Shown: positions 3,465 through 62,099 of the stretch, piece after piece | How positions within the stretch are numbered: position 1 is the first letter of the stretch | Layout: every line of letters begins with the position of its first letter | Assembly (NCBI GenBank): GCA_036172245.1 | Contig: JAYWIR010000050.1 | Coordinates: forward strand, 682,001-746,000 | Direction of reading: 5' to 3' | Length of the DNA stretch: 64,000 nucleotides | Origin: Raillietiella orientalis | Lineage: Eukaryota | Notes under the pieces: model-generated | The model's input: the letters and a program-made list of their open reading frames with translations, nothing else | Told to the model about the DNA's origin: nothing | Databases searched by the model: none | Position numbers and translations under genes: made by a program

Positions 3465-4765
3465 AAAATGGAAATCCCTACGGGGTTCTGCTTTCGATGC
3501 TTCCCTTTCATGCCTTTTTTCTTTTCCGGTTTTTTTTTTTCTTTTGCTTTTCCAAGTGCCGAAAAACCACCCGCCTTCTTAGGGGGAGTGGCCGCGAAAC
3601 TCCTTAAGCACCGTCCATGCTACCCGAGAGTCCATGCCCTCTTCGGAGGCCATGTGGCTGCTGAGATCTCCGTGAGTGGCACCAGGAACCGTGGGTTCGA
3701 ATACTCGGGAAGAATCGACGCCGAGAGATGGGGGTGCGTCGCAGGTTTGCACTTCTTCCGCGAGATGACGCTGGTCGGTCTCTATTCGGGTGTGGCACTG
3801 GTGGAAACTGCATGCCTACGACGAGTGGCTGGGATTGGGAGTCGACCTTCCAGGGTCCTTCCAGGAAACAGAATCAAGGAGTCCCTTGGGATTCACCTCT
3901 GGTCGTGGAAAGCATCCATCCTTCCCCCCTCGTGGATGGACATTCCGTCTCGTGCCATGGAGCTGGCGGATTGATGATGCCTCTCCACAGAGTGTCAAGA
4001 AGTGCGCCGCTGCCTTCAGGGAGCTCCTTTCAGAGAAAGTGGGGAGCATCCCTTCGTGGTTCTCCTCAGAGGAGGAGGAAACAGGAAGCGGTTCCTTTGT
4101 GAATTCCCTTCGGGAAAGAAACGAATGGTCGCCCCCTCAAGAGGACCCCTCCGGAAAGAATAAGGAAGATGAAGTTCCCTTCTGAGACACCCAGGGAGGA
4201 GGTCCCCTTTGGGGTCCCCCTCCTCAGGAGTGAGAGTAACGGACTCCCTTCTTCGGAACCCTTCCTGCATCCATAGGGTGAATCCCTCCCGGGGCATCCC
4301 CTATCTCGTAGAACCGCACGCACCCTCGGGTGGCGTGGAACAGCGTTGAAGAGCTGCGTGAGCCGCCGCCAGGGGCGCGGCGGTTCTTCAGGGACTTGTC
4401 GAAACAAAAAAAAAACTAGAAGGAAAGCAGAGAAGTCAGGAAGGAACCCCAGAAGGATTCCCATCATGCTCTTCAAGTAATGTAACTCTTCAGTCCGAAA
4501 GGGGACCCCCCCATGAATCCAGGAGTCCAGAGGAAGGAGTCCGTTCCTCTCATGCTTGGTGGGGAGTCCCGGAGGGAACCTCTTCCTTGCTTCTTCTCCG
4601 AAGAGAACCCGGAAAGGATCCGCTCCTGGAATTTATTCTCCGGAGGGAACCCGCAAGGCAATCTTCCTCCTAGTTTCCTCCTCCTCTGAAGAGAAATCCT
4701 GAAGGGGCGTCTCCGAGTTTCTCTGAATGGTCGCTCTCCGAAGGGAGCGACGCGCGCTCTTCTGG
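3465..4765 (-). mobile_element. SINE-like repeat copy interrupted by a nested antisense copy of the same family
   Basis: 3465-3644 joined to 4475-4765 aligns by eye with the continuous copies at 26400-26790, 52160-52640 and 56500-56960. Confidence 0.7.
3645..4464 (+). mobile_element. Full-length ~820-bp tRNA-headed SINE-like element
   Basis: Starts GGAGGCCATGTGGC, has a B-box-like GGTTCGAATAC at ~3694, and ends ...ggattcccat(cat). Flanked by catgccctcttc (3633-3644) and catgctcttc (4465-4474). Confidence 0.75.
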
Positions 4766-7620: not shown

Positions 7621-8859
7621 CTAGCGGTCGCGTGGGAGTTTCCACAGCAGACGACGCTCCTCTAAGCACACACCTCGAGAGCGGCAACCCGAACTCCAGT
7701 GCCTCCAAGCTTCCCATTTTTGAGGGGGATTGGGGGGGGCAGGAATTTTTTTACTCGGGAGTGGAGCCGCGACGATCGTTGGTTCCCTGCAAACTTCACT
7801 GACTCCGTGAGCGCGCTGACTGTGGGAATCGCGATGCGCGAGGAGCGGTTTGTTTGAGCCAGGGGGGATTTTGGTGCTGGGGTGGCGTACCGATCCATTC
7901 CGCCAGCCGCTCCTGCAGGCGAATCCCTCTACAGGGACACCTGCAGCGAAAGAGACCCTCATCGAGGACCAGGGAGCTCCGTCCATCTCAGCTAGCGACC
8001 CGCGGAGGTGGCGTCCAAGATGTCGCGCGTGTTTGCCATCTGACGGACGCGGTGGCCTGCGTGAATCTCCCTCCGCGCGTGCGCGGACGCGCGCGCAGCA
8101 GCAGCAGACCGAAACCATCCACACTCCACGTCTCGCGTATGACCAGGGGAATCTTCGTGGGTTCTGCGTGGGCCGAAAGCGCAGATGCTGGGCGGTGCGG
8201 ACCGAGGAGTCCAGCTCGCGCAGGCGGGTCGTTGGGAGGAACGGGGAAACTCGAAAGGTGGGCAAGACCTCCCCCCCCCCCCTTGGCCACCATGCCCACC
8301 TCTCGTCCGTTTCCCTCCCGCTGCGGTCGGGGCTCGCGTGCGTCTCTCCCTACTTCGCGGGAGGTGGCCGGTCGGCCCGCGAGCGTACGCGGTAAAGCTC
8401 CCGCAGCGCGCCAGGATCCGAAAGATGGAGGACCCGTAGCTGATCAGGACGACAGCCAGAAAGGAGACTCCGGCGGAGGTCCGCGGCGATTCCAATGCGC
8501 GAGTCGGTCATAGGAGACCGGGCGCAAGGGTGAAAGACGAATCGAACCACCCAGCAGCTGCGGTCCTTCCTCCCCCCTTCCCTCCCAAAGTTTCCCTCAG
8601 AATAGGTGTAGTCCGTCGAAGCGGAAGGGAAGGGGGGGGGGAGTACTCGTCCAGTAAAGCTGAGAATTCGAGGTCTCGGGGCCGAAGCCGACCTCGACCC
8701 GTTCTCGAGCTTTAAAAAAGGGTGAGACGCGCGAGGCTTGCTCGAGCACTGAAGCTCGGATCCACGAGCGGCCTATGGGCCCATTTTGGTGAGCAGAACT
8801 GGCGCTGTGGGCGAGCCAGATGGTGGATTGCGGGGCGAGCGCTCGACGTCCGAAGAGAA

Positions 8860-10440
8860 CCCTCAAAAAGGATCCGTTCCCTGTTTCCTCTTCGGAAGAG
8901 GACCCGAAGGGTCGTTTCCGAGGGGGGAAGCATCTCCTTTGCACGAACGGAGGAGAATCCCGAAGGGTCCCTTGGTTCCTGGAAGGACCCGGAGGGTGGG
9001 CTCTCAATCTCGACCACGCATAAGGGGTATCCGGAGGATTCCGTCTTCCACCAGTGCCACCGCACGTCTTGTCCAGCAAGCCACCGGCAGCGTGGGACTC
9101 GCGTCCTTCCGTCTGCGCCGTCCACGTAGCCTCATCCACTGCGGACTGCACCGTCGGCAGGTGGCCGCGCTGTCCAGGAAGAACGGATGGATCTCGCGCC
9201 GCCCCGCGAACGGGAGTACCTGGTTGCAGGGAATCGCTCGCCACGTGGGCGAGGATCCAGGAGCCAAGCGCGGAGATCCTGGAAGATCCCATAAACAGGG
9301 TGTGTGGGCAAGCAGAATCTCCCTCGCCACCGCGCTGCCCTCCCTTAAGGAGCACATGGGTAGCAAGCAGCCTTACGGCTAGATGGGTGGCTAGATGGCT
9401 TTTCTCCTTCTGGAAACCTCTAGAAGGAGAAAAGGACTGAGCGAGTGGACGATGGGCCAGCTCACTGACGCTGTGATCCCGAGTGCTCGACCTCGTGGAC
9501 TTCTGATCTGGGGCATGCTACTGGGTATCCCGGAGGAAGACTTGCAGTGGCCCCCGGTGCTCCTGAACACCTCACCCTCCCTTTAAAGTGTCAGGAGTCG
9601 GCGTTGATGCTGCTACACTGAAGTCTCCCGTGCAACGCCCGCCGGCATCACTGTACACGAGGGGAAAGGGGTGAACCCGAACAGTGCCAGGTGCGGAGAG
9701 CGGGAATTCCTCCCATGCCTCCTAGTGGACTGCGTTGCCCTATGACCCCTTTGATCCAAATTGGCACTCTTCCGCGACCCTTGGAACCCTCGGTGGCAGT
9801 CCCAGAGACGTTTTGAAGCGCCTCTTCCTGAGCGACGCCCTCATGCCGGCCGCATCCCCAGCAGCACTTTACTGCCCACGCGGCGTGACCGTATTTGCAT
9901 GGAGAAGCAACTCCAGAGGGGATCAGAACGACAGGGACGCCCTCCATGAGAAACTATTGTGCTGTCCTCTTCATGAAGATGGCGTCATCTGGAAGTCGCG
10001 AAACAGGAATTTGCCGGCGTCCTGGCAAGGATGCAGAGGACGCCCTTCAGCACCCAGTGAACCCCCTGCCTATCCCTCCCAATTTTTTTCGTATATATTT
10101 TTCTGTTTTATTTTTTTCTTTTTGTTTATCTTCCCTCCCCTTGTGCTGCCGAGGCGAATCCTGCTGGCCTGCGTGCCAGATCCCGGCAGGTTCTTTTTCG
10201 TATTCATAAGTAACGTGGCAGGTTCGAACGTCTTGCCACATACATGTAGGTTTTTTTTATAAATAAACGCCCGGCGTGACCGGGTGTCAATCTGCCGCCG
10301 TACTCGAATAGAGGCCGACCAGCGCTATCTCGCGGGAGAAACTCGAAGTCACGACGCACCCATTCATTTCCCTGGCGTCGCCCTTCCCCGGGCGGGATTC
10401 GAACCCACGACGCCTCTAGCCACATTGCTTCTGACGCGGG
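8860..10440 (-). mobile_element. SINE-like repeat copy split by a LINE insertion
   Basis: The head with B-box GGTTCGAATCC (~10395-10405, minus) and the body (8860-9065) align with the uninterrupted copy at 3645-4100. Confidence 0.72.
9066..10289 (+). mobile_element. 5'-truncated L1/Tx1-clade LINE (family B), ~1.2 kb
   Basis: Zinc-finger remnant near 9670-9740 (NPNSARCGEREFLPCLLVDC) and DVLKRLFL, homologous to 37776-38264 and 23240-23910. AATAAA+hairpin end; degenerate TSD at 9050-9065 / 10290-10303. Confidence 0.78.
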
Positions 10441-10904
10441 TGCCCATCCCACGGAAGGTGTCCGTTGCTATGGGCAGCAGGACCGCGGGGTCGTGCAATT
10501 CGGCATCCCCTGACGAGCGTTGCCAGCAGCGAGTCCTCCCTTGAGCCGAAGCAACGGGAACTGAAGACGGGCAGCGCATCGAGCGTCTCGAGTCCGCCCT
10601 GCCCGAAGGCTGGGGCAAAGCAGTTCCTGCCCCCGGCGCACCGCCGCCGGAGGGAGGAGGGGGGAGGGGAAGAGGTTTCCGGAGAGGGCGGGAGGATCGC
10701 GACGGTGGCAGCGGGAATGCTCCGGCGAGATGCCGGATGCGCCATGGTCCGGTGCGGAGGAGGCTGCATGCGAACGGTCGGCCCTTAGGGCACGGTCCGG
10801 TCGATCTCGAGTTGTCCCGGTGGCTGTCCATCCTCTTCGGGAGCGTATCGGCGTCGAACACGCGCGGCACACCCGCGACCGACAGAGCACTCGCGAGAAG
10901 ACGA

Positions 10905-13644: not shown

Positions 13645-14170
13645 CCCTTCTTTTCAGCCGGCTGGGCTGCTGCCGTGCTGGTGGCCTCCCCTCGCCGCGA
13701 ACCTGGCTCCAGCAAGTGGCGGGATGTCACCATGGCGCGGATGCAACGCCTCGCCGAGATCGTCGCAGCACCCTCCTTCAGCCCGCCTCCGGTGAAGAGG
13801 CGTCGCAGCAAGTCCAGAGCGGTTGCCTGCGGGTCGCCGCCGCAAGCCCTCCAGGGCGGCGCCGCAGGCCAGCAGTTCAGGAAGGCGGCTCTCCCGGAAA
13901 CCAGGTGGAATCGGCGCAGAAGCAGCACAGCATCCCGTTCGCCACCGGGGAGGGAACGCGGGGGTGTCCGTGCGGAGGGAAGGGACCACAAGTCCTTCGG
14001 GGGGGGGGGCACCGAGAAGCTCTCCCCACCGAAGGAGTCCCTTTGCCCGGAAGCGAGGAGTGGCGGCGTTCAGCAACTCGCTCGTCTTGCAGCCGTCCAA
14101 GGGTTTTTCGCGACTCCTGCCATGCTGCAGGACAACCCCCACCCCTTCGGCTGGCTGCTGTCATTTCTTG
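13645..14170 (-). mobile_element. Family A LINE fragment with internal deletions
   Basis: ALDLLRRLFTGGGLKEGA motif; lacks the CxxC...ESLPH segment present at ~21960-22010. Confidence 0.7.
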
Positions 14171-17064: not shown

Positions 17065-17320
17065 GGGGTTCCCGGCATCCGACCCCTTGACTCCCTCCCA
17101 TGTGTGTGGACACCTCCGTGTTCCCGCCCCGGTGGCAAGGGGATGCTCTGCCGCTTCTGCGCCGATCCCACCTGGTTTCCGGGAGAACCGCCTCCCCGAA
17201 CTGCTGGCCTGCGGCGCCGGCCTGGAGGGCTTGCGGCGGCGACCCGCAGGCAGCAGCTCTGGACTTGCAGCGACGCCTCTTCACCGGAGGCGGACTGAGC
17301 AAGGATGCTGCAATGATTTC
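17065..17320 (+). mobile_element. Family A LINE fragment with the same deletions as 13645-14170
   Basis: gaactgctggcctgcggcgcc...gcggcggcgacccgcagg is nearly identical to the reverse complement of ~13790-13900. Confidence 0.7.
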
Positions 17321-19260: not shown

Positions 19261-20499
19261 TAAGGAGCGGCAAGGCTTCGTTCCGGTGGACGAAGAGAGC
19301 GTTCGCCCGCAGCAACTCGCAACGCCAGCTGAGTCACTCTTCTGCGGAGATGCGCTCTCGCATTACTTCCTCTTCCCTCTTCTTTCTTTTTCTTTTTCTC
19401 CTGCATGCTTTGCAGCTCCCCTGCGACCAATGGGGACAGAGTGCCCAACGATTCCCGAGTCTGCTCTTCCAGAAGGAAGCAGAGAACAGGAAGCGTCTCC
19501 GAATTTCCCCCCTGTCCGATTCGCGGTGGGGAGGACGAATCGGTCCAGAAACAGAACAGAGAAACGAGCTAACAAGGCGCTGCTGCCACGGGCAACGTCG
19601 AGCGTGCTTGTTTTCGGAGTCGCAGGTAGGACACGCGTCTCGCAGGTGCGGGGAGGGTAGAAGAAGCTCGGGGAGATTCAGAGCACCGCGTTTTGCACCA
19701 GGGGGTCTTGCGGCGAGGGAAGTGCCCGCTTCGTGAAGTTTCCGGAGGGCGTAGCCGGACTGAGGAAGAGTCCCCTCTTCCTTAGTCACGGATTCCCATT
19801 TTGTTTCCTCAGCAAACCCATTTAAAGGTCTGTTGCTGTCAGTTCTCCGGGAGACGAAGCATCGAGGCAGTTTCGTGAAGCGGGGTGTTTCAGAGCCGGC
19901 ATGAGTAAAATGGTCAGCCTCCTACTCAGGGACCACTGGCTGGCTCCCTCCGTCACAGCGTGAAGGTGAGCGCGTGAAGCGGGCCGGGTGAAGGCGGAGG
20001 GGGCATTCGCCGTCGCCGGTCACTAGTCGACGGGTCACGCGGGGCGCGCGCAGGCGAGACGACGTGCTGCCGCTGGGCGCGCGAATGCCGGAGCCGTCCC
20101 AGCGTCACTCTCACAGTGGGGATCGAGACTCACGACGCACCCAACAAGGCGACGACCCCCTTCAAGGCAGTCCGACTGGATCTGAGTGAGAATCCCCACG
20201 CGTAGGCACTTCAAGTGCTTCTGCGTTCCGTCGGGAGACTTCTGCGTCGAGGAAGCGCGGTCGGGCTGTTTTGGGAAAGGCCGAGACGGTTCTCGAACCG
20301 TTCCTCGATGGCAAGTTCATCTTGCCTCAACGGACCACGATCTGGAACACTTTCGTGACCCTCCTTCTTCTTCGTCCCTATCCCCCCCCCCCCCAGCCAT
20401 CCTCGCCTTCTATTCGACGAGGATCCGCACGCAGCGTCTTTTAAGGAAAGCCCTGTGGGGGCGCTGCAAGGTCCCGGTCCGCCTAAAACACACCGCGAA

Positions 20500-20959: not shown

Positions 20960-21400
20960 GCAGCTGGAAGACGCGCGGGTTTTCGAACGGCGCCGCTGCT
21001 CGGCCTCGGGCGAAGCGGCCCCTTCGGAGAAGCTGACTCTTCGAGTGCGCTCCCCTCTCTTCCCCGAGGGAGTTGCGGGGCCTCCTTGGTGTGTGGGCAC
21101 TTCGGTGCTCCTGTTGCGCTGGAGACAGGGCGCCCCGCCTCCCCGAGCTGTCCCTGGCGCCGGACGGTCGAATCTCCTGTGCGCCTCTCAGCTAGCTGTG
21201 ATGGTCCGGGGGAACCGTCGCGGAGGCCGCCGTCTTCACCGCCCTATGCGGGGAGGACGCCGTCATGGACGTTCTGCGGCGATTCTTCGCGCGAGGAGGA
21301 CTCTCGGCTGACGCAAAGATCGCAAGGGCGAACGGCCGCATCCGCTTCATCGTCGCAGCCCGTGGCGTGCGGGAGTCTCGGACGCGGTGAAGGGAGGCGC
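20960..21400 (+). mobile_element. L1/Tx1-clade LINE zf-RVT fragment
   Basis: SPSCPWRRTVES...C and DVLRRFFARGGL; ~120 bp is highly similar to 25045-25200. Confidence 0.6.
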
Positions 21401-22904: not shown

Positions 22905-23236
22905 CGCTCCTGCAGGACGAACCTGCGACCTTGGAACTGGCCCAGAGCAGTCTCGGCCTTGTGAAGGCAGTCTGACGGCGCTTCTGCTGGACGGAAGTCG
23001 TGGAGGAGATTGCCGGCGTCGGGCGCCGGTAGTACCAAAAGACACCTGACCTTTTGGTTCTTTATTAATTGTCCCCTCCTGCCTATTGAATGATTTGTTT
23101 TTTTTATCCTCCGTGTCGGAGGAGCCTCCCCACGAATTCATTTTTTTTTCCCCGTGTTTTTGTTTCGAGGACTGAGTTCCCTGCTTGTTTGCTTTGCTTA
23201 CTTTTTCAAATAACACCCCGGCGTTGACCGGCAGTA
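22905..23236 (+). mobile_element. Family A LINE extreme 3' end
   Basis: EVVEEIAGVGRR matches EVRTEIAGIHRR; T-rich UTR; degenerate AATAA+hairpin end. Confidence 0.6.
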
Positions 23237-23239
23237 CGT

Positions 23240-23910
23240 AAAACCCTCTTTCCCCACTCCTGTGCGAGACAAGAGGGAGTGCAACCCCACACTGTGCCAG
23301 GTGCAGGGAACGGGAAATCTTCCCCGTACCTGTTGCTGGATGCGTTGCCCTCCTGGGTGTCCGAGAACGCTTCTCTCCCGATGGACAACGGAAGAGGGGT
23401 TTCGCGGCGCCTCTTCGCGCGCGACTCGATGTCGCCTGCGGGTTCGTGGGATCGTGGCATCAGGAAGCCGCTCCGGAAGAGGCCAGTCAAACGGTGAGGT
23501 CTACTCCTTCATGAGGAAGGCGACAAGATAACGGCATCTCTAGCAACAAGAGGAGGAAGTTGCCAACATCCTCCAGAGGATGCTGAGGACGCCAGGAAGA
23601 AATCTGTGATCCCTTGCCTTCCTCCCCCCCTAAGCATTTACAAACCAAACTTTTTTGTGTATATGTCTGTGTGTGTGTGTATGTTTTTTGTTTTTGTTCA
23701 CCCCTTCCCCCACTCCTCCTGTGCGGACCTCATCAGGGGCGCTGCTGGCGAGAAGCGGGGTGCCTCCGAGGCGGCATCTCCTTCCTAGTGACGATGTGAA
23801 GCCACCATGAAGAAGAATGACATTTTTTTTAAAATATTTTACATGACTCTTTTTTTCTGTGCATATTTTTTTTTTTTTTGCAATGAACGCCCCGGAGCGA
23901 CCTGGCGAAA
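23240..23910 (+). mobile_element. Family B-like LINE 3' fragment
   Basis: cacactgtgccaggtgcagggaacgggaa matches 9675-9710 (zinc finger); RRLFARD; ends caatgaacgccccggagcgacctgg. Confidence 0.65.
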
Positions 23911-24419
23911 ATGAAACGCTTTTCCGGGAACGCGCGACGTCTGGTGCCGTGGCCACGCGGTCGCCAACGCGGACGGTGTGGACGGAACGGCTGCGAAAGG
24001 CGTCGTCTGGAGTCGAGGTCGTCTTTTTTCATTTGTTCTACCGGCTGCCACTGTCGAGGTACCTGACCGAGTAAAGGCAGGATCCTGGAAAAGAGAGAGG
24101 AAAGCACCGAAAGAGACATAGTCGGCACTTGTTAACATCCTCGAGGCTGGACTAATGTTGTGTGTCCCTAATGTTGCTTTTATTAAAACACGGAAAGTGC
24201 ATTCCACTAAGAGCAAATAATGCACAGACTTCTATCGGAGGGAGGAGTTTCCTGTTTTAATCACCCGTTCCCGTTTGCACCCCGTGTCTCCTTGGGGTTT
24301 GTTCCAAAATAATGCTTGAAAACAAACCGCTGTTCAGGAAGAAGGCAGCCATTCATCCCCCCCAGAGGGATTCTGAATCCCATCGCATTCGTCACGGCCC
24401 GAAGGGTGTCCCTGTTAAC

Positions 24420-25039: not shown

Positions 25040-25200
25040 TCTGGGAACAGGGCGCCTCGCCTCCCCGAGCTGTCTCTGGCTCCAGACGGTATCGAATCTC
25101 CAGCGCGCCTCTCGGCGGGCTGCGGTGGTCCCGGGGAACCGTCGCGGAGGCCGCCGTCTTCAGCGTCCCTGCGCCGGGAAGACCGTGGTCATGGAAGGAT
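25040..25200 (+). mobile_element. LINE zf-RVT fragment, homologous to 21120-21270
   Basis: Shared cagggcgcc..gcctccccgagctgtc and ggggaaccgtcgcggaggccgccgtcttc. Confidence 0.6.
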
Positions 25201-26384: not shown

Positions 26385-27085
26385 TCCATGGAAAGGAAAG
26401 ATTGGGCGCGTCCTCTCCTCTACGCTCTCGCTTTTTCGGGTTTGCCAAGTGCTGAAGAGCGGTTCGCCTCCTAGGGGGGTGCTCAAGAAGCTTTTCAGTG
26501 CTGTCCACGACACCCGAGAGTGCGAGTGACTCTTCAAGTTAGGGGGGTAACCTCGGAGGGACCACTCTATGGAACCAGGGAGGCTGCGGAGGAAGGAGTC
26601 CGTTCCTCTCACTCTTGGTAGGGAGTCCTGAAAGGAACCTCCTTTTTGTTCTCTCCAGAGGGATCCCCGGAGGGGGGATATTCCTTATTTCTCCTCCGAA
26701 GGAAACCCGCAAAGGAACCGTTCCTTGTTCACTTCTCTGAAGAGCGCTCTCGGAAGACAGCAGCGCTCTCCTTACGCTCTGGAGAGGCAATCTTACGAGA
26801 GGGTGTCAACAAGCTACCGAGGTACCGTACGGCTCCATTTTCCCAGCCGGAGGGGAACTCTGAAGGGAACCGCCTCCTCCATTCCTGTAAGGACTTGGAA
26901 AGTCGACTTCCTGTCCCAGCCAGTCGACGGGGGCATTCGGCTTCCAACAGTGCCGCATCCGAATGTGAACCAACCAGCGTCATCTTGCGGGGGAGACTCG
27001 CAACCCACGACGTACCCATTTCTTGGTGTCGATCGTTCCTCGGGCGGATCGCACCCTCATGGTCGCCGCCAACGCGGGTCCTAAT
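26385..27085 (-). mobile_element. Near full-length SINE-like copy with an empty LINE target site
   Basis: Aligns end to end with 3645-4464. The target reads ggatgcggcactgttggaag on the minus strand at 26941-26960. Confidence 0.75.
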
Positions 27086-29792: not shown

Positions 29793-29867
29793 GCACCGTA
29801 TCCCCCCCCCCCTCGGAAGGACCGGACATGAAATCCTCCCTTCGAGCCTCGCCAAGTGCTTGCTGAA
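29793..29867 (+). repeat. 75-bp inverted repeat, left arm
   Basis: 29821-29860 is the exact reverse complement of 32481-32520 (40/40). Confidence 0.95.
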
Positions 29868-32473: not shown

Positions 32474-32547
32474 TTCAGCGAGCACTTGGCGAGGCTCGAA
32501 GGGAGGATTTCATGTCCGGTTCTTCCGGGGGGGGGGGGATATGGTGC
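32474..32547 (-). repeat. Inverted repeat, right arm
   Basis: Reverse complement of 29793-29867 with about 4 differences. Confidence 0.95.
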
Positions 32548-36700: not shown

Positions 36701-37627
36701 CGGAAGATCATCTTTTTTTTTTTTTTTCCTTTTTCTTGCAAAAGACCGTGAAATATGTGCCTTCAGGCACACTTGTGAAATACGCAAACTGCTTTTGATT
36801 CCTCCTTCGATGCCGGCTGACCCAAAAAGGCAATGCACGTCATTTAAAATCTGATATATTTTTTTTTTTTCTTACAAAAACTGGCGCTATTCTAAGTAAA
36901 TGATTGCGTGTTCCAGAAAATCAATTCACTTCGACTCGAACGTTCTTTAGATTTATGTCTTGATCAGATAAGAAACGCACAAAACGCTTTTAGTGCCTCG
37001 TCGTCGGGTAATTTTTCGGAAAAATAAATACATGGCAGGTCACAGAAGTGCCTCTCCTCTCCTCTCCTCTCCCTTCTCCAGATAAAATTTCTGCAGCGAG
37101 GAGACTCTCGGCTGCCTTCTCCCCTTCCTTTCCCCAGCCGCTCCCCTTCCGGTCTCTCTCTCCCAGCGTGGAGAACCCCCATGAATCAAACTCTCCTTTT
37201 GATTGTCCTTCGTCTAGTTGCTGTGGTTTCACAATCGAACCGATCCTTGTTTCTCGGGGAGGAGGAAAAGGAAGGAAATGCAATTCTCCTGCTTCCGCGT
37301 ATGCACCCGCAGGTTGTCCAGGTCAAACGCGCGAAACCATCCATCCCTGGCAACAACTCCCTCGCGAACCCCTAGACTCGCAGATGGGTCCAAATCGGAG
37401 GCGGGCAGATGCATCCCTCCGAATGGTTTCCGGCTCGAAGCTTTCCGGCCTTCCCGTCTGCCGGAGGCTCCCCTTGCACGCCGGCGACACGGCTCCTTCG
37501 AGAAGATAAAACTGCGTTATTGCCCTGAGATACTGTTTTTATTGCGCTGCTGCTTGGTTACGTTCCCGCGTGCCGTAACAGCGCGTTGTCATTGGGCACG
37601 TGACCAATCGAACAATTAGGGTCCGCG

Positions 37628-38420
37628 TTGGGGGCGTGTGGCTGCGGCCCTCGCGCGTGGTGCCAAACGTTGGCGGGTCCGAATCCCCCACGAGGGGGAT
37701 CGACGTCAGAGAAATGGGGGGTGCGTCGTGGGTTTCGAGTCGCCGCCGCAAGGTAACGCTGGTTGCGGCACTGGTTGACACCCGGTCACGCCGGAGCATT
37801 TATTTATAAAAAATAAGCGTCTGTGGCAGGACGTTTGATCCTGCCACGCTGCTTATAGCTACGAGAAGGAACCTGCCGGGAACCGGCGCGCAGGCCAGCG
37901 GGGTTCGCCTCGGCCCCACAGGGGAAGGGATCACCGTGTGCTGGAGGGTGTCCTCTGCATCCTTCGCAGGATGCCGTCAAGTTCCTGTTTTATGATTCCC
38001 AGATGGGAACCATCTTGACGCTGTCCTCATGAAGAGGACGGCAAAACAGATGGTGTCCCTGTGGCTCTGGCCTCCTCTGGCCTTGCTCCATGCAACCACG
38101 GTCCCATCGCCTGGACAGCAAACTGCTGCCGGGGATGTCACCTGCCGTCGTGAGGGGGTCGCGCAGGAAGAGGCGCTTCGCAACGTCTCTGGCGTTGCTG
38201 TCGGGGGTTCCAAGGGCCGCAGCAAAGCGTCCCCAAACGGGTCGGAGGGCAACACAGCACACTAGGTTGCGGCATCGGTGGAAGCCGGAAACCGGATGCC
38301 CTCCCCAACCGGGCGGGGATTGGAAGTTGACCCTCCGGGATCCTTCCAGGAATCAAGGAGCCGTTCCCTCTTCTGTTGAGAAAGTGGAGTCGTACTTATT
38401 CCACGGAGGGTTGGCTGATA
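37628..38420 (+). mobile_element. SINE-like copy split by a family B LINE
   Basis: The head (ggggcgtgtggctgc...gggtccgaatccccc) and the continuation from 38265 align with 3645-3900. Confidence 0.7.
37776..38264 (-). mobile_element. 5'-truncated family B LINE (489 bp) with a 15-bp TSD
   Basis: ALGTPDSNARDVAKRLFLRDPL matches 9780-9850; AATAAA+hairpin end; TSD ggttgcggcactggt (37761-37775) / ggttgcggcatcggt (38265-38279). Confidence 0.82.
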
Positions 38421-39249
38421 CCCCCCCCGTTTCCTGGGGGGGGTTGCCTCTCCAGAGCATAAGAAGCGCGCTGCTCTCCCATGCTCCGCAGAAATTTGGA
38501 GGCGTCCCTTCTTGGGGTTCTCTTCAGCATACACCCCCATCATCGCACCTTTGGGTGGCGGGGACAGGGTCAAAGAGCTTGTGTGAGTCCCCTCCAAAGG
38601 GGCGAATGGTCCCTGAGTACTTGATAAACCAAGCCCCCCCCCCAAAAAAAAAAAATCATCAGGAAACGGAACTCTGATGGCGCTGGCAGTATATCTTGGA
38701 ACATGTGTGTGATGTACGTGATCTCGCATGTATGTGCTGGAGACGCCGTTGCATTCAGTTTTCAGGTTTTGTTCACTTTATGGGACGCACTTAGGGTATC
38801 CTTAGTTAATGGAGCTCCGTGACCCACTCAGCAGTGTGTGTTTACATCCTGATTCGTATATTTCCGATATGGGAGCAATCACACCTTCTCCATGGAGACC
38901 CATAAAAAAAAGCAGTTTCTTCTCTTTCTACCTCCATCTATAGACAGCAAGTTGATCGACGGAAACATCGCTCATGGCAAGAGGCGAGGCAAAAGACACC
39001 GAGCTTTTTCAAAGTGCTTTACGGATGGTGCTTCTCCGTAGTGATGCGTTCACGGCACTCATGAAAGGCTTTTTCCTCCCATCCTGAATCCTGGAAAACA
39101 TAGCCTCTTTCGGACTGACCCGCGAGGGACCACCCTCCTTCTGTGTGGACACGATGCTTTCCTGTTTGGAAGAACATCCTAACCGACACACTCTAACACG
39201 AAAGATGGGAGCCGATCCGAGGTTCCCATTTCCGAAAACTCCGTCTTGT

Positions 39250-56459: not shown

Positions 56460-57305
56460 TTCGGTGCCCGCGCACCCCGAGCAAACGCGTTCAGAACCGC
56501 CGCTTCCAGTTTACCCTTTTTTTGTGTTCGCCAAGTGCTGAAGAACCGTCGCCTTCCTGAAGGCTCACGAAGCTCTTCTTGACCGATGCCCACTCCACCC
56601 GGGAGTGTGTGCCTCTCTTCAAGTTAGGAGGTACTCCAGGAGGGGACCACCCCATGAATCCAGGAAGGCGTCCGTTCCCCTCACGTCTGAGAAGGGATCC
56701 CCGAAGGGAATCCCCTCCTTGGTTGTCTCCGAAGGGACTCCGAAGGGAATCTGCTTATCCTCACTCTCTCCGGAGGGACTCCCCAGAGGCGAACGCTCCT
56801 CATTTCTTCTCCGGAAGGAACCCGAAAAGGACCGGCTCCTGGAATTTCTACCCCGAAAGGACCTCCCGGAAAGGATTTGCTCTTCATTTCCTCCTCTGAA
56901 GAGAACTCCGAAGGGACACCTCCCCATCTCTCCCAAGGGAGAAGCGCGCTTGTTGACCCTCTGGACGGGTGTCAGTTTGCTAGCTCCATGGCACCTGATT
57001 GAGGTCTTCCTTCCCGAGGGGAAAGGGGAGGGTAACGGCTCACTTTTCGTAATCGGGGAGCAACACAACCCCGAAGATCTCTATACTCCTGGAAGGACGC
57101 CGGAGGGCTGACTTCCAGTCCCGCCTGGTCCACCGGTGCGTCCGCACCCTATGCCTTCAGGCCAACCAGCATCACTCTTCGGGGGGAGTGGAATCGAACC
57201 TCCTACGACGCTCACCCCGTTCTCAGGATCCGGACTTCATCGGGCGGGAATCGAACCCGCGACTCTCGGTGCCGCGCGCGCCGAGGTCGCAGCTGCGCGG
57301 CCTTC
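56460..57305 (-). mobile_element. Full-length SINE-like copy with two B-box modules and an empty target site
   Basis: Minus-strand head gaaggccgcgcagctg...GGTTCGATTCCC (~57246-57257), a second GGTTCGATTCC (~57190-57200), ~41-bp sub-repeats, and a ...ccatcat end. Confidence 0.78.
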
Positions 57306-58420: not shown

Positions 58421-60462
58421 AAACTCCGAACTCGAAATCGCCTCCAATAGCATGTAGTGCAAGGGACGGTCGGCATGGCAACGATACTGCCAGGAGAGGA
58501 GGAGAAAAAGAGACGGCTGGGACGGCCGAAGACTCAGATCCCTCCTACCTCCCCGCTCTCCCTCCATCAAAAGAGAACCGCCGATCTATGTAGAAAGAGG
58601 TTCATCCAGGATCCCTTGCGATGGCTCGAAAGGAAACAGAGAAGAGACCCCGGTGCGGTCTCTTAGCAGGAATCCATTGTGATGGACTGATGCGAAGGGG
58701 CCACGACCGTGGTCGGGACGCACCTCCTGCGTCTCTGCGGACGGTCCCCCGTCAAGGATTTGCCCTGAAGCCGAACGGCGGCGGGTCTCCGGGTGGAAGA
58801 AAGACCCGATTGCACGCACCCCAGCCGGAAATGGGCAACGCCTGACGTGAAAGTTTGCACGAAGCGGGAGAGGTCGAGCGAGTTGTGCGCGCGGTACGGA
58901 TGGTGACCGCTGGGAGGAACACCGCGTTGCATCCCGCTGGGTCCAGAAGTTCTCCCTTCGGCGCGAGGAAGACCCCCGCGGCCATGCTTGCTTCGTCCCC
59001 AAGGCCACCCCCCGAGCCCTCGAGCCCTGATTCCGACCCCGAGAAGGTCCTCGCTGGTCAACCTGCGGGTCGCCCGTGTATATGACTGACCTACAGTCTT
59101 AGGCTGGTTCCTTTCCCCGCATCTCCCTTTTCGATGACTGCGGATCCTTTCAGCATCGCTTCCGAGTCGACATACCCCAACGAAAGTCCGCTGTCCAGCT
59201 TGGTCTCTAGCGAAGGAGTTGGATTGCTCTTTTCGATCCCGAGCAAGATTCTGGGCTCGGTCCCGGGGAAGGAAACGCCTTGCAAAAGAGGCGGGTGGCG
59301 AGGAAGCGCCAGTAGACCTCGCTGGAAACTGGCCGGTGCCCTCAGGGCCAAGTTCGCAACGAGGTTGACCTGAGACCCGCTTGGTGGGTGGGTGGGAGGA
59401 GGATTCACTTCCTCCAGAGGGAGTGAGCACGTGGTTTCCTCCCCAGCAAAGAAAGATTTCACGGCCTCCATCCTTTTAATTGTCCCATCTCTTCGACTTC
59501 AGCAAGGTGCTCAGTTGCACGGACCGGCGCTGCCACGGTTTCGGATCTGCATGCGCGCTCAGCACTCATGCAGAACCCGTCTCACCTGGCAAGCATGCTG
59601 CGAACCGGTCGATTTGAGAGAGGGCGGTTGCTCCGCAAGGCAGACTCGGAGAAGACATGATCTTCCGCGGAGGGAGGCGGATCCGCGTTCCGCGGAGTCC
59701 CGTGGTCAAACGGAGAGCGGATGTCCTCCTCGGGGCAGATGGCCTTCCTGAGTTCGGCGGCGGCCTGTAGCTGTGGAGTGCCCCCTGTCGCCCTTTCGGT
59801 GGACGTGGGCACGCGCACCGGCAGCCTTCGCTCTGCCGCGCAGTCCCTCCGTCATGGGGCTCGAGGGGACCTCTCGTCCGGCACGCCCGGCCGCTAGGAG
59901 GAAGCGGAACCAGCGGCCGGGAAGATGCGCGCGGCACCTACCCGCCGTTGCCAGGACGAGGATGCTGGGCCGTTCCCTCACATCTCGCACTCTGTTCTGC
60001 TTCTGAATTCGGCTGGACATCTGCCGCAGCGTCTCCATCCCATATGGAGGCCAACATATCGGACTAATTCCCAGCACCGAGCTGGCACGTGCTTGGTGCT
60101 TGCGTCTACGTTCCTGCGAGGAAGCGAACCCGTGCGGCGCTCCCCAGCTGATGTTTCCCACCGGAGGAAGAAAGTCCTTCCGCGCGGTCGTCATCCGGAA
60201 CCCTCCCCTCTTCCCCCCCCCTCAAAGAAAAAAAAACTTCGCCTTAGTGGAGGCTGCCAGGCTTCCGGTTTACTGCCTCGTGCCGGCGGGCACGGTGGCA
60301 CCATCGGACCGGCTCGCGCTGGCGCTCCCTTTCGAAAGCGCAGCGCACTTCCCCCGCCGATTGATCAGGGGGTTGACCGGCATCAACTCCCTTCCAGACC
60401 TCCTCACCGAAAAGAGCAGGAAAAGAACGAAAAGAAAAAAAAATCACTCTTTCCCTTTGCAG

Positions 60463-61381
60463 ATTGCGTGCTGCTCCTGTTCCCTCCCGAAGGCGTCCTG
60501 ACGTCATCGAGCATCCCCTCCTCCTACTCCCACTGCCAGATACGCTTCGAGCTGACAGACAACGAGATGTACGAGATGTTCCTGCAAGGGCTGCAGACTC
60601 GCGGGAGGTGCGACGAGAACTACGTGTCACTGAAGACGTTCTTCCGCGACGAAGGCGGCGACCAGGAGCATACCGACTCCCAGCAGCGCTTCTGCGGGAG
60701 CGTCTGGCACTACAGTTTCAGCGAGCGGAGCTTCTTCGCCACCCGGGGGAGCGAGCTGTCCGTCTTCTTCGCCGACAGGGGCAATGGCTCCTTCGAGATC
60801 CGCTACCGGCGCTGGAAGATGTGCTCCGGCAGGGACATCCAGGCGAGGAACGCGTTGTTCCGCATCAGCACGAGGGCGCTGCCCGCATTCCCTTGCACCA
60901 TCCGTGTGAAGCTGCCCTTCGGCGTGCGCACGCGCATCAGCGTGCGCTTCCACGGAGGTGGTGGAGCCGTCGGCAGCGACCTCGGAGAGGTCACGACCCC
61001 TCCTCCGGGATTCGCCAGCGAGCAGTGCTCGGAGGCCTTCTTCTGCATCAAGTCCGGCGGCAGGCAGAGGTACTGCTTGTGCGGCGGAGACGTCGTACCG
61101 GAGAAAAACTACAGTCTGGACCTGAAGACGAATAAAATGGATGTAAACATCAACTATGACGCGCCTTCAGTGACCGAGATCGACCTCAAGCTGTCCTCCT
61201 ACATGGAAGACAACGTGTCTTGTTCGTACGGGTGGTTGAGATCGTTCTACCTCTGCTACTCGTTGTTTACCGTCTCCATGAACTGGAAGGAAGCGCAGAA
61301 CACTTGCCGGATGTACGAAGGCACCTTGGCGACCGTGGACAGCAAGGCGAAGCACGAGTTTCTGAACAAATGGCTGAAGAA
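60463..61381 (+). CDS. Coding exon 4: two CUB domains and the N-terminal half of a C-type lectin domain
   Basis: Acceptor ttccctttgcag|AT (phase 1). CUB pattern DCVLLLFPPEGVLTSSSIPSSYSHC...RCDENYV...RFCG...SFEIRY, then a second CUB-like repeat, then CTL motif CSYGW...CYSLFTVSMNWKEAQNTCRMYEGTLATVDSKAKHEFL. Donor AA|GTAAAC (phase 2). Confidence 0.9.
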
Positions 61382-62099
61382 GTAAACCGCCCCATTTCTC
61401 GTTCTAGGAACACCTCTCTCGAATCCCTACCCCTTCCTCTCTATCCTCATCCCGCCTCAAAACGAGCACAGCACCTTCCCCCTTTCTTGCGAGCGCTCCT
61501 GCGGACGAAAGGCGTGCGTGTTCGCCGTGCCCAACCACCTGCAAAGGCAACGGCGGCCGCTGCACCGGTGTAACTCTCGGGATCACCTGAAAAGGCAACC
61601 TGCCCTCGGAACGGACTCCACCCTCCCCCACACTCCCTTCCGAACGACCTTTGAGCCGAGTTCGAGAGGGCGGTTGTCACTGGACCTGGATAGCAGCGAA
61701 TCCGAGCGAGAGAAGGACGGCCGGTAGCTGCTTTTCGGCGTGGCAGCAGCTCGAGCATGGGAACAGCGAAAGATTCTGGTCAGCCCGGGGTCGCGAGCGC
61801 GGCTGGAAACGAGTTGGGAGGAAGGGAAACCTGGCCCGAGTCCGCTGACCACGGAAGGACGCGGGGCAAACTCCTTCTTCCCTCTTCTCCCGCGAAGAGC
61901 GCGCCGACGGCGTTTCCTTTCCTCGGGACCCCAATCGGACGCTACTCCCCTTCCACCCCCATATCCCCCGCCTAGCCCGCTCGGGGGAACCTGTTCTCCC
62001 GGGAAGAAATGCGGCGCGCATCGCAGTGCAGACCGCATCACGTGACGAGCGGTCGCCGGGGACGCGGGCTCCACTGGCAATCGAGCGATCGCCGCACCC

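Follow-up and report, generated by a model that had tools for sequence, protein, structure and literature searches.

Organization of the two filled loci

Two copies of a retroposon, here designated B, were found antisense in two copies of a SINE-like repeat within the 64-kb window, by which the whole stretch of DNA analysed is meant. At the first locus, the left arm of the filled SINE (37616..37775, forward strand, nhmmer model positions 4 to ~153) comprises the tRNA-like head with the B-box-like GGTCCGAATCC and runs to the insertion point. It ends in GGTTGCGGCACTGGT (37761..37775, forward strand), the left copy of the target-site duplication (TSD), which has a private T in common with the right copy (GGTTGC versus GGGTGC in the consensus). 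TGACACCCGG comes next. The short, 5'-truncated B copy of ~490 bp (37776..38266, reverse strand) was delimited by BLAST, nhmmer, alignment and folding and has its 3' end at 37776, with an AATAAA at 37804-37799 and the terminal hairpin and TGTCA tail at 37798-37776 on the reverse strand. The SINE restarts with GGTTGCGGCATCGGT-GGAAGCC, of which GGTTGCGGCATCGGT is the right TSD copy (38265..38279, forward strand), overlapping the ambiguous 5' junction by 2 nt. The right arm (38280..38666, forward strand; nhmmer matches 38260-38527 and 38543-38666) carries an internal deletion (model positions ~413-662) and an A-rich tail near 38650. Just 5' of the TSD this host SINE lacks ~13 nt, which are present in the other filled host.

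The second locus lies on the opposite strand. Its left, head-side arm (10290..10446, reverse strand, nhmmer) ends in GTACGGCGGCAGAT, followed by TGACACCCGG, and includes the left TSD copy at 10303-10290. The long B copy of 1224 bp (9066..10289, forward strand) has its AATAAA at 10262-10267 and its hairpin and TGTCA tail at 10268-10289, and only the part from 9640/9700 to 10289 has homologues in the window. On the reverse strand the right arm (8836..9065; nhmmer matches 9061-8916 and 8920-8836) restarts with GTGCGGTGGCACTGGT-GGAAGAC, GTGCGGTGGCACTGGT being the right TSD copy at 9065-9050. The span of this copy is the one proposed in an earlier note on this DNA; the short copy, which the same note had ended at 38264, was found to extend in homology to ~38266 (‘cactagg’).

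In SINE orientation the consensus around the insertion point (^) reads ...ACGCTGGTCGGCCTCTATTCGGGTGCGGCACTGGT^GGAAACCGGATGCC. Both B copies are antisense at this one position, after CACTGGT and before GGAAG, at the same nucleotide in both loci, and both junctions read TGACACCCGGTCACGCCGG immediately behind the insertion point in SINE orientation, as had been noticed earlier. One T/A is ambiguous at the B 3' junction, and the other junction lies 14–16 nt upstream. A BLAST alignment of the two loci (10132-10406 versus 37930-37675, 74% identity over 277 nt) is co-linear through the 3' junction into the SINE. Each copy has its own TSD, of 15 nt with two mismatches for the short copy (37761-37775 / 38265-38279), and degenerate and of 14 versus 16 nt for the long copy (10290-10303 / 9050-9065). 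By eye, the TGTCA tail and the target showed no complementarity.

Within the long copy, the stretch 9700-9725 (ATTCCTCCCATGCCTCCTAGTG), which coincides with the truncation point of the short copy, is by eye loosely similar in antisense to the target plus TSD (CTTCCACCGATGCCGCAACCTAGTG), and microhomology at this place may have set the 5' junction of the short copy. A third candidate filled site at 20099-20142 was rejected; it holds a degenerate piece of SINE only, without a B end.

The target repeat

The target repeat was defined by two rounds of nhmmer in the 64-kb window, with the copy at 3600-4450 as seed. It has a length of ~770-800 nt (profile of ~770 positions). Five long copies span the target region, and four more pieces do not contain the site. 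Three of the five are empty: the full copy at 3646-4427 (forward strand), with the target GGGTGTGGCACTGGT^GGAAAC at 3788..3808; the copy at 27059-26430 (reverse strand), with the target at 26940..26960; and the copy at 57304-56503 (reverse strand), with the variant target GCGGACGCACCGGT^GGACC at 57127..57149. These empty sites (3788-3808, 26960-26940 and 57149-57127) are close to where the earlier note had placed them. The nhmmer matches of the filled copies are 37632-37775 plus 38265-38666 (forward strand) and 10424-10290 plus 9061-8836 (reverse strand).

The four pieces without the site (11432-10948, 52699-52217, 4860-4494 and 3642-3525) start at profile positions 259-301 or later. For 11432-10948, 52699-52217 and 4860-4494 the start falls at 259-301. 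These are either 5'-truncated retrocopies or point to another zone of breakage or landing within the SINE; upstream of these three pieces no B-type 3' end was seen.

An A-rich tail was present at all seven SINE ends inspected, and no Pfam match was obtained in the ORFs overlapping SINE copies. The repeat is short, dispersed and non-coding, ends in an A-rich tail and has copies truncated at the 5' end, and can safely be called a SINE-like retroposon. Support for the description of its head as tRNA-derived stayed below threshold. On reading the sequence, a B-box-like GGTTCGAATCC is present in the head of the SINE copies. ARAGORN found no tRNA genes and neither did Rfam at the gathering score; relaxed Rfam searches gave only sub-threshold matches to tRNA-Sec (15.3 bits versus a gathering score of 47, at 10384-10456) and to tRNA (14.2 bits versus 29), with no match in the copy at 3.6 kb. 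A tRNA-derived origin is plausible.

The 3' end of B and its relatives

BLAST aligned the long and short B copies at 81.8% identity in the 3'-terminal 159 nt and at ~71% in the adjoining 360-379 nt. Both end in AATAAA-N22/23 with the terminal sequence CCGGCGTGACCGGGTGTCA, and the last ~100 nt of both fold into two hairpins (z = -2.4 and -2.8). The terminal stem-loop, CCCGG-CGTGA-CCGGG, is followed by a tail of 5 nt.

With a B profile, nhmmer recovered 10 B-like pieces at E≤1 in the window, seven of which have a recognisable 3' end. The order T-rich stretch, AATAAA-like signal, hairpin and short tail is common to all seven, with the TGTCA tail confined to the long and the short B copy (~10289, forward strand, and ~37776, reverse strand). 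The tail is TTCCA at ~1172 (forward strand), CACGA at ~6760 (reverse strand) and TAACA at ~21450 (reverse strand), and is not legible at ~23233 and ~23907 (both forward strand). In most of the delimited B-like ends the tail is followed by an A.

The other eight fragments are located at 731-1172, 23060-23233 and 23250-23907 on the forward strand and at 6962-6760, 17706-17403, 21735-21450, 24666-24435 and 43480-43384 on the reverse strand. They have the 3' module of B (T-rich stretch, AATAAA, hairpin CCCGG-N5-CCGGG) with other 5-nt tails and other flanks, and look like several sister subfamilies. Two of them stand head to tail at 23060-23907, separated by ~15 nt (TAAAACCCTCTTTCC, ~23236-23250) that by eye resemble TGAAACGCTTTTCC (~23908-23921) behind the second copy; the arrangement may have arisen by two insertions in tandem with a duplication sandwiched between them. 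That the B-like ends at 1172 and ~17300 might have a target in common was rejected, as alignment gave no convincing homology between the flanks. The 19-nt 3' end of B also matched four metagenome loci, none of which (0/4) had the AATAAA/T-rich context, and these were set aside as chance matches.

Coding content and class of B

The Tx1 clade, in the L1 group of LINEs, has an APE-type endonuclease and a C-terminal CCHC motif in ORF2. The assignment of B to Tx1-like LINEs, suggested in the earlier note, found no support, since a reverse transcriptase (RT), endonuclease or zinc-knuckle signal was absent from B and from the scanned part of the window. Pfam returned no match at E≤10 for ten ORFs of the long copy that lack stops. 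A further 300 ORFs of at least 90 aa from ~1-51.9 kb were likewise without a match, and no RT was found in 330 ORFs of the window. The window contains 393 ORFs of at least 90 aa; of the 93 beyond 51.7 kb, a few of the longest were scanned within the 30-ORF Pfam set. When 9066-10061 was read through into 332 residues, with X at stops, phmmer found no match among 1.84 billion representatives, and a protein atlas returned no usable match for B. A codon-phase test on the mismatches between copies gave no periodicity (p = 0.49 and 0.35). By eye, a decayed C..C...H....C-like stretch could be read near 9900-10040; no tool supported this reading. An old LINE ORF2 has a poorly conserved final kilobase, and for this reason the absence of a protein signal is not evidence against a LINE.

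Several features of B are of the Pol II or LINE type: it exceeds 1.2 kb, is truncated at the 5' end, is flanked by TSDs of 14–16 bp and has internal oligo-T runs, which would stop Pol III. The AATAAA 22-23 nt before the CA end and the two 3' hairpins are likewise retroposon and Pol II-type features.

In a rather unlikely alternative, B is a non-coding, non-autonomous retroposon mobilised in trans by a site-specific LINE, and the specificity belongs to the enzyme of the partner. A length of 1.2 kb is considerable for such a passenger, AATAAA and the internal T runs fit a Pol II transcript, and the poorly conserved last 1 kb of an old ORF2 can escape all of the above searches. What favours a passenger is the lack of any coding signal over 1.2 kb, together with the conservation of the 3' hairpin region, which is the part that the RT of a partner would recognise; SINEU-3, mobilised by Tx1-Mar, provides a precedent (PMC4494074).

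Proposed mechanism of insertion

The preferred reading, which we regard as fairly probable, is that B is a retroposon inserted by target-primed reverse transcription (TPRT) with a preference for one sequence in the ~770-800-nt SINE, and most likely represents the 3' part of a LINE or else the non-coding passenger of one. We infer that the endonuclease confers the specificity, that B is itself a LINE, and that the preference for the SINE site would extend over the whole genome.

An endonuclease encoded by the element or by a partner would nick the sense strand of the SINE between ...GCGGCACTGGT and GGAARCC. From the freed 3'-OH, cDNA would then be made starting at the extreme terminus of the B RNA (...CCGGGUGUCA), where priming may take place on the leading A of a poly(A) tail. 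The element would in this way come to lie in antisense relative to the SINE and would lack an A tail. The ambiguous A/T at the junction and the A behind most tails fit priming on the first A of poly(A). The other strand would be cut 14–16 bp away, giving rise to the duplication, and cDNA synthesis would often stop early and so produce 5'-truncated copies. In consensus coordinates the second nick differs by 2 nt between the two events, which suggests that it is set by a measured distance and not by a second recognition site.

The site could also be set by homology between RNA and target, if B transcripts read through into the SINE and the SINE-derived tail annealed to other SINE copies and started reverse transcription there. 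This is unlikely. It would account for the missing A tail and for a junction that is base-precise in both copies, and SINE sequence does follow every TGTCA-tailed copy seen, so that read-through RNAs would carry SINE. However, the AATAAA 22-23 nt before the element end should limit read-through, and a staggered duplication of 14–16 bp would still need positioned nicks; two copies fit this model and cleavage by a specific endonuclease alike.

Site preference versus chance

Two of the five target-bearing SINE copies in the 64-kb window are filled. Both TGTCA-tailed B ends are in the site (2/2), against two of all seven B-like 3' ends. The flanks of four other B-like 3' ends were compared with the window by BLAST and none (0/4) matched the SINE, and the fifth, at ~23233, adjoins the next B-like copy on reading the sequence. 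Since the other B-like ends are not in the SINE, the pattern is specific to the TGTCA-tailed subfamily.

For a pair of random insertions in 64 kb, the chance of striking the homologous SINE position (±1) in the same orientation in different copies was calculated at ~5.6×10−6, or ~1.2×10−4 over the 21 pairs among the seven B-like 3' ends. A small simulation of the same chance gave 1.5×10−6, a value derived from very few hits. A site preference of B is likely, and B is probably a target-specific retroposon.

It is very unlikely that an ordinary LINE with a loose nick preference struck an exposed spot of an abundant repeat twice, by coincidence or at an unspecific hotspot. The SINE is indeed abundant, with five target-bearing and at least four truncated copies in 64 kb, and only two events are at hand; but these agree in base and orientation, they involve the sole two copies with this exact tail, and the expectation is ~6×10−6 per pair and ~10−4 over 21 pairs.

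Independence of the two insertions

Both insertions show the hallmarks of retroposons, namely a fixed 3' end, variable 5' truncation and TSDs (15 nt and 14/16 nt). The 5' ends lie at different positions of the element, at lengths of 1224 and ~490 bp. GGTTGC, in place of the consensus GGGTGC, is present in both TSD copies at 37.7 and 38.2 kb and absent from the other pair, while both TSD copies at 10.3 and 9.06 kb have three extra bases (CGG/TGG, i.e. YGG). The empty copy at 57.1 kb has a 3-nt insert at the same place, and YGG may thus be a trait of a SINE subfamily and not a private mutation; the two hosts differ regardless. As each TSD carries the variants of its own host, the two copies result from two separate insertion events and not from the amplification of one composite.

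Over their left arms the two filled SINE copies agree at 72 of 100 positions, no closer than pairs of a filled and an empty copy, which range from 0.58 to 0.72. Homology between the two filled loci stops inside the SINE (BLAST). Both insertions are old, with copies 71-82% identical and TSDs degenerate. B (~74%) and the SINE arms (~72%) have diverged to about the same extent between the loci, and the order of insertion and host is therefore not given by age alone.

The proposal that these were independent target-primed events was therefore upheld, in view of the different 5' truncations, the separate 14–16-bp TSDs, the host-specific variants and hosts that do not cluster. A common 5' junction together with common diagnostic SINE mutations, by which one amplified composite would be recognised, was not found within the window. 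That one ancestral SINE+B composite was copied by segmental duplication, gene conversion or retroposition, and that one copy later lost 735 bp of B, is disfavoured and scarcely credible: the about equal divergence of B and SINE arms (~74% versus ~72%) would suit it and the loosely target-like stretch near 9700-9725 could favour a deletion, but the breakpoint would have to fall exactly at the B/TSD boundary, the two TSD pairs carry different host-specific variants, the ~13 nt missing from the 37.7-kb host are present in the other, homology between the loci ends inside the SINE and the filled copies do not cluster.

Relation to known site-specific retroposons

Some families of the Tx1 clade prefer other transposons as target: Tx1 inserts in Tx1D, Tx1-Mar in Mariner-N4_AMi, and two families in LTR elements (Kojima 2015, PMC4494074). 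That study took a family as target-specific when the same target stood in over 20% of flanks; further targets are given in supplementary figures S3-S6 of the paper. The crocodilian Tx1-Mar and SINEU-3 are found antisense around position 240 of Mariner-N4_AMi, with an expected duplication of 16 nt, and tandem insertions sandwich a duplication (PMC4494074). They resemble B in that an abundant transposon is hit at a fixed region in opposite orientation with a duplication of ~16 nt, and in that 5'-truncated copies mark independent events (PMC4494074). The target is a DNA transposon for Tx1-Mar and SINEU-3 and a SINE for B, and hundreds of events were counted for the former against two for B (PMC4494074). 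In addition, the RTs of Tx1-Mar were placed in the Tx1 clade and SINEU elements have poly(A) tails (PMC4494074), whereas no RT was found for B, which ends in a hairpin plus TGTCA without an A tail.

Tx1 of Xenopus laevis inserts in the piggyBac-type Tx1D, Keno in U2 snRNA genes and Kibi and Koshi in microsatellites (PMC4494074). All four are APE-type LINEs, in which the endonuclease is thought to choose one multicopy sequence (PMC4494074). The targets of these elements as given in the introduction of PMC4494074 include no SINE, the target of B. In its terminal hairpin and short tail B is similar to UnaL2 of eel, a LINE of the stringent type with a 3' stem-loop (PMC1636434, PMC4176376); the hairpin of B is common to several subfamilies, and the likeness is one of architecture only. 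Unlike B, UnaL2 is not described as site-specific in the available text of these two reports (PMC1636434, PMC4176376). A description of a LINE targeting a SINE was not encountered in the part of the literature searched, a body that lies outside subscription journals and Repbase reports. Targeting of one spot is a known habit of some LINEs; the landing pad, a SINE, would be an unusual one.

Site-specific LINEs are of interest for how a simple APE-type nuclease and a reverse transcriptase get aimed at one DNA sequence, and for how mobile elements avoid harm to the host by landing in other repeats. More tentatively, it is possible that the SINE is a dedicated pad for B, and that B belongs to a wide radiation of sister retroposons which share the 3' module (T-rich stretch, AATAAA, CCCGG-N5-CCGGG, 5-nt tail) and each have a mobile element of their own as target. 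In that case re-targeted LINE endonucleases would be present in the genome as a natural series, B being the member specific for the SINE, and if there are many sister lineages with different targets, a comparison between these enzymes could show which residues govern the choice of target. In the window alone, B is represented by two decayed fossils.

Other features of the window

The window is GC-rich, with a GC content of 0.49 to 0.62 per 4 kb, and has a eukaryotic look. The only Pfam match among the first 30 long ORFs is a C-type lectin fragment (Lectin_C). The start of the domain lies at 61275-61382 on the forward strand, in ORF 59898-61382 (E = 5×10−5, ORF residues 460-494), and probably belongs to an animal gene as one of its exons.

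Two pairs of inverted repeats were observed, 13756-13939 / 17137-17320 (184 nt, 90% identity, arms 3.2 kb apart) and 29803-29867 / 32474-32538 (65 nt, 95%, arms 2.6 kb apart); they could represent the terminal inverted repeats of DNA transposons, or else copies of a repeat in inverted orientation. A direct repeat of ~150 nt (21119-21269 / 25041-25195, 84%) has its copies 3.9 kb apart, with several of the B-like fragments between them.
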